From the NCBI RefSeq assembly GCF_054482525.1, contig NZ_CM137006.1: a stretch of DNA of 64,000 nt, one strand, 5' to 3'. Below, piece after piece: positions 1 through 3,000 of the stretch. Position 1 is the first letter of the stretch, and every line of letters begins with the position of its first letter. The position numbers are program-made.

Positions 1-3000
1 CCTGCACCATAACACCCTGTTTTGGCGCCCGTCTGGTGCAGGAGGGTAACCGGTTGTATTACCTTGCCGACCGCGCCGGTATCAGAGGCCGGTTCAGCGA
101 CGCGGATGCGTACCATCTGGACCAGGCCTTTCCGCTGCTGATGAAACAACTGGAACTCATGCTCACCAGCGGTGAACTGAATCCCCGCCATCAGCATACC
201 GTCACGCTGTATGCCAGAGGACTGACCTGCGAAGCCGACACCCTCGGCTCCTGTGGTTACGTTTATATGGCTGTTTATCCGACGCCCGAAACGAAAAAGT
301 AAATCATCAGAATAACCTTCTGCTCCGGCCTGGTGTTTTCACCACGCCACTTTCCCATTTTTCATCTCTGCATATCAGGAAAATCTTCAGTATGAACACA
401 TTACCCGACACACACGTACGGGAGGCATCGCGCTGCCCATCTCCCGTAACCATCTGGCAGACACTGCTCACCCGACTGCTGGACCAGCACTACGGCCTCA
501 CGCTAAATGACACACCGTTCTCCGATGAACGTGTGATTGAGCAGCATATTGAGGCAGGCATTTCACTGTGTGACGCGGTGAACTTTCTCGTTGAAAAATA
601 CGCGCTGGTGCGTACCGACCAGCCCCGGTTCAGCACTTGTCCCCGCTCTCAGTTAATAAACAGTATTGATATCCTCCGGGCTCGCCGGGCGACCGGCCTG
701 ATGACCCGCGACAATTACAGAACGGTAAATAACATTACCCGGGGTAAGCATCCGGAGGCGAAATGATGAAACTGGCCCTGACGCTGGAAGCTGACAGCGT
801 TAACGTGCGGGCGCTGAACATGGGGCGCATTGTCGTTGACATTGATGGTGTTAATCTCGCTGAACTGATTAACAATGTCGCTGAAAACGGTTATTCACTC
901 CGCGTGGTGGAGGAATTCGACCAACAGTCAACCTGCACACCACCACCGTTTACGGCCCTTGCCGGCATACGCTGCAGTACCGCACATATCACGGAAAAGG
1001 ACAACGCCTGGCTGTACTCGCTGTCACATCAGACGAATGACTTCGGCGAATCAGAATGGATTCATTTTACCGGGTCCGGTTATCTGTTACGTACTGATGC
1101 GTGGTCGTACCCGGTTCTGCGACTTAAACGCCTGGGCCTGTCAAAAACGTTTCGTCGTCTGGTCGTAACGCTCATCCGCCGTTATGGCGTCAGTCTCATT
1201 CATCTGGATGCCAGCGCTGAATGTCTGCCGGGTTTACCCACCTTCAACTGGTAACCGGGACAAAAGACACAGTATGGAATCATTAACCACAGAAACGGCG
1301 CTGGATATTCTGATTGCGTGGCTACAGAACAATATCGACTGCGAATCCGGAATTATCTTCGACAACGATGAGGATAAAACGGATTCGGCAGCACTGCTGC
1401 CCTGCATTGAACAGGCCAGGGAAGATATCCGTACACTGCGCCAACTGCAGTTTCTGCAACAGAACCGGTGAGTCTTACTCACCAGACTTCATTCCACTGA
1501 CGCCAGCCTGAATACGGCTGGCGTTTTCGTTTATAAACCAAAAGGAAAAACGATGATGTCAGATATCACAGCCTCCCGTCCGGAAGTGGTCACCGGGCAT
1601 ACGGACGTTATTTGCTCAACCAGTATCCGCCACATTCTGGCTGTACGAAAGAGTACACTGCTGCAAATCGACACACTTATCCGGCAACTGGCTGAAATCT
1701 CAGCAATGACAGAAAGTATTGGCGGTAAAACCGCACTGGACTGGGCGATGAAACAGGATTTTCGCTGTGGCTGCTGGCTCATGGAAAAACCTGAAACGGC
1801 AATGAAAGCCATCACACGCAATCTCGATCGCGAAATCTGGCGTGACCTGATGCAACGTTCCGGGATGCTGAGTCTGATGGATGCGCATGCCCGGGACACA
1901 TGGTACCGGTCACTGGAATACGATAACTTTCCGGAAATCAGCAAGGCGAATATCCTGAGTACATTCGAACAACTGCACCGGAGTAAGGATGAGGTGTTTG
2001 AGCGCGGGGTGATCAACGTCTTCAGAGGGCTGAACTGGAATTACAAAACCAATTCCCCCTGTAAATTTGGCAGTAAAATTATCGTCAACAACCTGGTGAG
2101 ATGGGACAGATGGGGATTTCATCTTATCAGTGGAATGCAGGCAGATCGCCTGGCTGACCTGGAAAGAATGTTGCATCTGCTCAGCGGTAAACCGATCCCC
2201 GACAACCGGGGGAATATCACCATTAATCTGGATGACCACATACGGTCCGTTCAGGGTAAAGAACGCTATGAAGATGAGATGTTCATCATTAAATACTTTA
2301 AGAAGGGATCTGCACACATCACTTTCAAAAGGCTGGAGCTGATTGACAGAATTAACGATATAATAGCCAGGCACTTTCCTTCTGTGCTCTCAGCCTGACC
2401 CCGAGTTTGATTCCCTTTCGATATCAAAAGGGACTGCGGGTACAAAAGAGGGTACATCTTTCACCAAACCAAACAAAATAAACTAATATCAACATGATAG
2501 AAGCAATCTTCGATTCCGAGTCCGGCACCAAATTCATATAAACGGACCTCCACGGAGGTCCGTTTTTCGTTTCAGGACGCCACAATTTAAGCGTTCTGCC
2601 TAAAAATCATTTCTACCGAACTCAACCAAATTCTCCCCACATCACCAGCATTTTGCGGGTATATCCCAATTCGGGGAAATGTGTTCCTGAGCTATCGCAC
2701 TGACTGACGTGAAATGTCGTGCGGCCCCGTGATGCTGTTGAACGTCAAATGACGTCATCAGGAGCGTAACGCATCCATAAAGCACAACATCGGTCTGAAC
2801 GCCGACTGATAAGATTTTCTGAATGAGAACAAAGAGAAATGTATCGGTCCACTTGCTCATGCAAAGACTAACAATCCATTAAAATAGTAAGCGCTCCGGG
2901 CAATTTTCCATGGATTATTTTCTGCACATTTTTCTTTGGCAAAGATGATGAATTTTGATGGTAAGGAATATTACTTCTGGTTCTCAGTAAAATCCTTTCG

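Follow-up and report, generated by a model that had tools for sequence, protein, structure and literature searches.

What is the origin of a fragment of a tRNA-Phe gene that lies in front of cadC in an E. coli chromosome, and does this fragment mark the end of an acquired genomic island? The question arises from a 64,000-nucleotide stretch of contig NZ_CM137006.1 (NCBI RefSeq assembly GCF_054482525.1), hereafter referred to as the window. The window belongs to the E. coli chromosome, with cadC starting at 3147 (+) and cadB at 5051 (+), and the pheU site is therefore expected directly upstream of cadC. What is found there is a short copy of the 3' end of tRNA-Phe, which an earlier note, made from the sequence alone, had regarded as the distal attachment repeat of an island integrated at tRNA-Phe. 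This view has held up well, since the copy adjoins the sequence that normally follows pheU and the inserted DNA to its left is absent from close relatives. We consider it very probable that a large genomic or pathogenicity island is located at the 3' end of pheU and has its distal (attR) end at positions 1-2530, and that the responsible enzyme was a P4-type tyrosine integrase. It should be noted that this is a well-documented kind of island end that is already known, because the same attR and the same yeeU/yeeV cargo have been published for pheV and pheU islands (PMC11537424, PMC6174562).

The junction at pheU

The 22-mer TTCGATTCCGAGTCCGGCACCA at 2509-2530 (+) occurs only once in the 64 kb, even when 3 mismatches are allowed, and 0 occurrences are expected from shuffled sequences. 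Alignment with K-12 shows that it corresponds to nucleotides 54-76 of tRNA-Phe (23 nt) minus one G of the GGG run, with its left edge at the first T-loop base and its right edge at CCA, and that it is oriented relative to cadC in the same way as pheU. The earlier note was right about the position of the 22-nt copy, with the correction that this is not a perfect 22-nt copy but a 23-nt end from which one base is missing. As the note had also stated, the rest of the tRNA is lacking. ARAGORN detected 0 tRNA genes and Rfam gave no tRNA match in the whole window, and the complete tRNA-Phe that had been named beforehand as evidence against an island end is not present at the position of the copy, where a cloverleaf is reduced to its 3' 22 nt. 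The absent G would in addition break the acceptor stem. The comparison with K-12 that the note had proposed showed that MG1655 is collinear with the window from 2509 rightward, over the normal interval from pheU nucleotide 54 to cadC, and that the absent G is the sole difference between the two within the tRNA-derived segment. To the left of 2509, the alignment revealed no similarity to K-12. The features of the island end and of the adjoining sequence, all on the + strand, are the following.

1-302, +, cbeA/yeeU-type antitoxin gene, 3' part (Pfam PF06154, E = 1.7e-50, profile positions 7-100 of 101)
392-766, +, cbtA/yeeV-type toxin gene, 124 aa (Pfam PF06755, E = 5.9e-62, full length)
763-1254, +, DUF5983 (yeeW-like) gene (Pfam PF25638 and PF19419; list of open reading frames (ORFs))
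1274-1471, +, small ORF of 65 aa, named DUF957 (RefSeq annotation in EcPF5 only)
1553-2398, +, DUF4942 gene, the last gene of the island (Pfam PF13708, E = 4.6e-66)
2399-2508, +, non-coding arm at the island's end, attachment-site P arm (no K-12 homology; repeats)
2509-2530, +, attR core, displaced tRNA-Phe 3' end from T-loop to CCA without one G (K-12 alignment; published attR)
2531-2663, +, integrase-side arm (P' arm) left over from an older pheU island (EcPF5 alignment)
2540-2572, +, Rho-independent terminator-like hairpin with T-run (folding; same hairpin after pheU in relatives)
2687-2887, +, integrase ghost, yjdQ of K-12 (tblastn and blastn against the EcPF5 integrase)

The state of the site before the insertion can be seen in PCN033, SCU-102 and 19KM1776, in which pheU is unoccupied and the order is dsbD-dicD-pheU-integrase ghost-cadC with nothing inserted. 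Window positions 2584-5000 are 100% identical to these three genomes, and positions 12800-28600 are ~100% identical. Counted from 2509, SCU-102 and 19KM1776 show 0 substitutions in 5.5 kb and PCN033 shows 1 in 10.5 kb, in each case plus the one-G gap. The segment to the left of 2509 is absent from these three genomes of identical backbone, as it is from K-12. The genes in this segment are therefore no part of the conserved backbone, which was the other outcome that had been named in advance as incompatible with an island. Other genomes match the island side. EcPF5 and TUM13773 have an island end that is 100% identical to positions 1-2583, whereas the EcPF5 backbone differs from the window by ~1.4% overall and by ~4% in the next 600 bp, and all mismatches to EcPF5 and TUM13773 are located at or after 2584. 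The window is thus a clean joint between island sequence shared with these two strains and a PCN033-type chromosome, and the switch lies no more than ~60 bp from the tRNA-end copy.

Complete genomes that share this island end also display its opposite end. According to its annotation, TUM13773 carries an island of 94,060 bp, in which an intact pheU and an integrase are located by dicD, 94 kb to the left of the identical island end. The order in this strain is dicD, pheU, a 421-aa tyrosine integrase (P4-type), foc/sfa fimbriae, cnf1, hlyCABD and the fec operon, followed by many insertion sequence (IS) fragments, the yee module, the 22-nt copy, the integrase ghost and cadC. For SCU-484, ESBLEC_HM24, 998 and AB_24_S34, the match coordinates indicate a layout like that of TUM13773, with junctions ~90-92 kb apart and on the same strand. 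For the assessment of how common such arrangements are, 5426 complete genomes were used, and a query was counted as present when a single place covered at least 80% of it. A query comprising dicD, pheU, the arm and the integrase was present in 1318 of these genomes, and window positions 1-3200, from the island end through the start of cadC, were present in 931. Islands at pheU are thus frequent. From these observations we infer an integrase-mediated origin of the junction in the window strain as well.

Several findings weigh against this interpretation. The left end of the island, with the intact pheU and the integrase, lies outside the window, so that the island cargo, its size and the identity of the partner (pheU or pheV) are not visible. 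EcPF5 (NZ_CP054236.1) has the identical island end, yet the island that ends at cadC in this strain starts at pheV, beside yqgA and speC. In addition, none of the 5426 genomes combines the backbone of the window with its island, the best match in the collection being 99.2% for positions 1-3200 and 98.7% for positions 1-25000. E300010, the best match over 25 kb, was uninformative: it carries another island with a type VI secretion system and Ag43, and its junction is disrupted by an IS. With respect to the far side of the island, CUVET21-PYO5 has two pheU junctions on opposite strands. The arrangements in EcPF5 and CUVET21-PYO5 would imply inversions between pheV and pheU islands, and the size of the inversion in EcPF5 would be ~1.3 Mb. 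Because these two strains show rearranged junctions, the presence of an intact pheU to the left of the window is likely, but not guaranteed.

The missing G and the position of the crossover

In the general model of integration at tRNA genes, the tRNA is restored by the island and the displaced fragment comes from the chromosome (PMC4383910); in this view, the missing G would be due to later decay. Our data fit another view somewhat better. The copy without one G seems to move together with the island, and on balance we lean towards regarding it as the island's own attachment site and not as a decayed chromosomal fragment. The strand exchange would then have taken place within the final 7 bp (GGCACCA) of the tRNA gene, and not in the T-loop, because the short copy would be borne by the island. 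The attR core of the window exactly matches the attR TTCGATTCCGAGTCCGG-CACCA in Table 1 of PMC11537424, which gives this sequence for many GI-pheV islands in various phylogroups. Likewise, pheU and pheV insertions have been described to end in a 22-bp repeat that is shifted by one base compared to K-12, and to carry YeeU/YeeV, DUF957 and a Z1226-type protein (PMC6174562). The minus-one-G copy is also present at the pheV attR of APEC E18006, where the native sequence downstream of pheV follows, and at pheU in OW1E2 beside an island end that cannot be aligned with that of the window. The window shares the GG state with the island parent and is of the recipient type from the end of the core onward. 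In an alignment that starts from the right, exactly GGCACCA (7 nt) is common to the island copy and the intact tRNA before the two diverge.

Such an exchange can be pictured as follows. The circular island would carry an attachment site composed of the terminal arm, the imperfect copy of the tRNA-Phe 3' end, and an integrase-side arm with a terminator. Recombination with pheU would leave, at the far left, the intact tRNA followed by the island's own arm, terminator and integrase, and, at the right, the last genes of the island with the imperfect tRNA-end copy, abutting the sequence that formerly followed pheU. At the left junction, the tRNA would be served by the terminator supplied by the island. 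The hairpin at 2540-2565, which would once have served pheU as its terminator, would now prevent read-through of the cbeA-cbtA operon into the control region of cadC. The toxin-antitoxin (TA) pair, if active as its families suggest, would probably favour retention of the island. A literature search for an excision or attP sequence of the she island gave nothing usable. If the crossover indeed occurs in GGCACCA, the island never has to rebuild the tRNA but brings a replacement terminator, and the pheU terminator in most E. coli, including K-12, would be a relic of such an island and not native.

The island and its junction could also have entered together, by homologous recombination of a large donor fragment upon conjugation or transduction, in which case the missing G would be an old, inherited decay. 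The mosaic and recombining nature of the island modules is in line with this scenario, as are the inversions between islands in EcPF5 and CUVET21-PYO5. The G count at attR is, moreover, polymorphic, since GGG versions of the same junction exist in KE50 (NZ_CP141083.1 497292-497397), JNEC-KY177 and FDN-4; these versions look rare, an impression and not a count across the collection. To the right of the core, the arm before the ghost provides ~45 bp of extra identity and ~130 bp at 92%, where homologous exchange could have taken place. However, the switch from donor-type sequence (EcPF5, TUM13773) to recipient-type sequence (SCU-102, 19KM1776) falls between the G-run and 2584, no more than ~60 bp from the att core, whereas a homologous crossover could fall anywhere across many kb of flank that is 98-99% identical. 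The same minus-one-G copy is also found at the pheV attR, where homology stops at CCA, and beside the non-alignable end in OW1E2. We therefore regard entry by homologous recombination as rather improbable. A further possibility would be that the tRNA match is fortuitous, or that pheU was destroyed by an unrelated event and the genes on the left do not belong to a tRNA-targeting island. Nothing speaks for this apart from the left end being outside the window. The 22-mer, unique in the window where 0 are expected, lies exactly at the place of the pheU 3' end in K-12 and PCN033, and genomes whose junction is identical carry an intact pheU and an integrase at the other end, so that this explanation is effectively refuted.

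More serious, though still unlikely in our estimation, is the explanation that follows the general model: the copy would be the chromosome's own former tRNA end, which a T-loop crossover displaced, and the G would have been lost later by slippage, independently in many lineages. The loss was perhaps even selected, with an imperfect repeat stabilising the island. Apart from the displaced-fragment model itself (PMC4383910), this explanation can draw on the argument that mismatched repeats stabilise islands (PMC11537424), and the GGG is the only homopolymer run of at least 3 in the segment. It would nevertheless require the identical deletion to have occurred repeatedly, as the exact 49-nt junction is present in 339 genomes and the same deletion is seen at both pheU and pheV, with at least 3 different island-end sequences. 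In the window, the deletion furthermore goes with an insertion that is very recent: 5.5 kb of flank show 0 substitutions relative to the unoccupied relatives, and 2.5 kb of island show 0 as well. In other published attR variants, the differences from the tRNA are confined to the left part, while the last 11-14 nt are always perfect (PMC11537424), in keeping with a crossover near the tRNA's 3' end. An island-borne copy thus remains the reading that we prefer. The combination of unoccupied relatives, a donor-like island and a recombinant window amounts to a natural experiment that maps the strand exchange of this integrase family, which is mainly of specialist interest.

Genes of the island end and the relic behind it

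The earlier note had described the genes on the left as a YeeU-like antitoxin, a YeeV-like toxin and hypothetical proteins that are usual cargo at the ends of CP4-type islands. Pfam assigned them to CbeA, CbtA, DUF5983 and DUF4942, and the block from cbeA to DUF4942 matches island ends in other genomes, in full agreement with that description. Together with the ORF named DUF957, the genes cbeA-cbtA-DUF5983 and DUF4942 form the 'yee' module that is typical of CP4-type elements. In published work on this family, CbtA blocks the polymerisation of FtsZ and MreB, and CbeA counteracts this; in such a system, the antitoxin would be expected to act on the cytoskeleton and not on the toxin. The CbeA- and CbtA-family genes are adjacent with the antitoxin first, which is the gene arrangement of a type IV TA system. 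The start of the window removes the first ~22 codons of cbeA; in EcPF5 and TUM13773 a full gene of 369 nt is annotated at this place. The gene at 392-766 bears the RefSeq name TA system toxin CbtA family, and the start of the DUF5983 gene overlaps the cbtA stop by 4 nt. The name DUF957 was taken from the RefSeq annotation of EcPF5, in which what is apparently the same gene lies at the same position with 100% identical DNA, and the ORF itself gave no Pfam match even at E = 10 and no NCBIfam match. Indeed, NCBIfam gave no match for any of the five island-end proteins, and a sequence search of the PDB with CbtA revealed no relative of solved structure. In relatives, the block is preceded by genes for DUF987, a JAB/RadC-like protein, an antirestriction protein, DUF932, DUF905 and a GTPase.

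The terminal arm between the DUF4942 gene and the attR core contains a hairpin of perfect spacing (TCCCTTTCGAT/ATCAAAAGGGA) at 2412-2433, directly 3' of the DUF4942 stop. This is followed at 2435-2456 by the tandem motif TGCGGGTACAAAAGAGGGTACA, which belongs to a motif block that is kept in two other island-end lineages, and TGCGGGTA is found again at 2654-2661, in the arm on the opposite side. The motif of the terminal arm is a possible arm-binding site for the integrase. This role remains a guess, because the counts of AGGGTAYA in the window are not above chance.

The terminator that the earlier note had placed behind the copy could be recognised as a GC-rich hairpin at 2540-2565 followed by a T-run. 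The hairpin has a stem of 11-12 bp with 6 GC pairs, followed by TTCGTTTC, and a minimum free energy of -23.3 kcal/mol (z = -2.6). These are the hallmarks that the sequence of an intrinsic terminator would be expected to show, namely a GC-rich hairpin and a subsequent U-run. The same hairpin is present after the intact pheU in K-12 and PCN033, and, in the EcPF5 island, also after the tRNA at the integrase end. In fact, the similarity to the EcPF5 integrase end extends further: the core and arm at 2509-2663 are 92% identical to the tRNA 3' end and downstream arm of EcPF5, where AATTCATATAAACGG comes after the tRNA, and then the same hairpin, the arm and the start codon of the integrase. Behind the arm of the window, the integrase ghost has codons 1-11 (2694-2726) fused directly to codons ~359-420 (2728-2884), and it contains a frameshift and an internal stop. 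In K-12 the annotation names it as the pseudogene yjdQ, and in relatives as a partial tyrosine recombinase. Positions 2584-5000, which contain the ghost, are present in 5193 of the 5426 genomes. In K-12 and PCN033, and apparently in most E. coli, the stump of an older island from the same family thus stands behind pheU already, and it is in front of this stump that the present island inserted. The terminator and the ~360 bp that follow the tRNA remnant would accordingly represent a relic of the older island, and not pristine backbone. A second copy of the tRNA end that would mark the far end of this older island was not recognisable in the window.

Relation to known islands and further features of the window

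The closest published counterparts are the GI-pheV and GI-pheU islands with intP4 (PMC11537424, PMC6174562). They have the same attR, the same type of integrase as the genomes that share the island end of the window, and a terminal yee module with YeeU/YeeV, DUF957 and a DUF4942/Z1226-like protein. The copy in the window differs in being located at pheU in a PCN033-like backbone, of which the three closest complete genomes are unoccupied, and the body of its island lies outside the window. Other pheU islands that have been reviewed include PAI-CFT073-pheU, PAI-S88-pheU, LEE (locus of enterocyte effacement) variants and SHI-3 (PMC7545054).

The 94-kb pheU island of TUM13773, SCU-484, ESBLEC_HM24, 998 and EcPF5, with foc/sfa, cnf1, hlyCABD and fec, shares its last 2583 bp with the window without any difference in EcPF5 and TUM13773, whereas the adjoining backbone differs by ~1.4%, as measured for EcPF5. 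We take this island to resemble PAI II of strain J96 at pheR/pheU. In the CP4-44 cryptic prophage of K-12, the same gene families are present in the same order (yeeU/cbeA, yeeV/cbtA and yeeW), with a type IV TA system by Pfam. CP4-44 is, however, another element at another chromosomal site, and in the window the genes are followed by the ORF named DUF957, the DUF4942 gene and the att core. K-12 yjdQ, a remnant of a P4-like integrase between pheU and cadC, is the same ghost as that at 2687-2887, but in the window it is parted from pheU by the newer island and sits behind the displaced copy of the tRNA end.

The finding marks the strain as a carrier of a horizontally acquired pheU island that is missing from its three closest sequenced relatives. 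The end of this island is identical to that of a 94-kb island of the uropathogenic type that encodes hemolysin, CNF1, F1C/S fimbriae and ferric citrate uptake. Should the two islands agree in their remaining parts as well, a large virulence block was gained recently by the strain, which would be of relevance for strain typing but not for general biology.

Further to the right, EcPF5 lacks a segment of 15.3 kb (13051-28355, within window positions 12727-28679). On either side of this segment stands one copy of a 324-bp direct repeat (12727-13050 and 28356-28679; 99.1% identical), which aligns to the yjdJ region of EcPF5. The segment contains two minus-strand ORFs of 1309 and 1284 aa, annotated in relatives as an S6-family peptidase and an autotransporter, as well as an AraC-type regulator and a fimbrial chaperone-usher cluster, and it matches PCN033, SCU-102 and 19KM1776 at ~100%. 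Lastly, Rfam identified two elements that are unrelated to the island end, namely the enterobacterial small RNA STnc630 at 49952-50117 (-), with 182 bits, and naRNA4/CssrE at 55784-55861 (+), with 85 bits.

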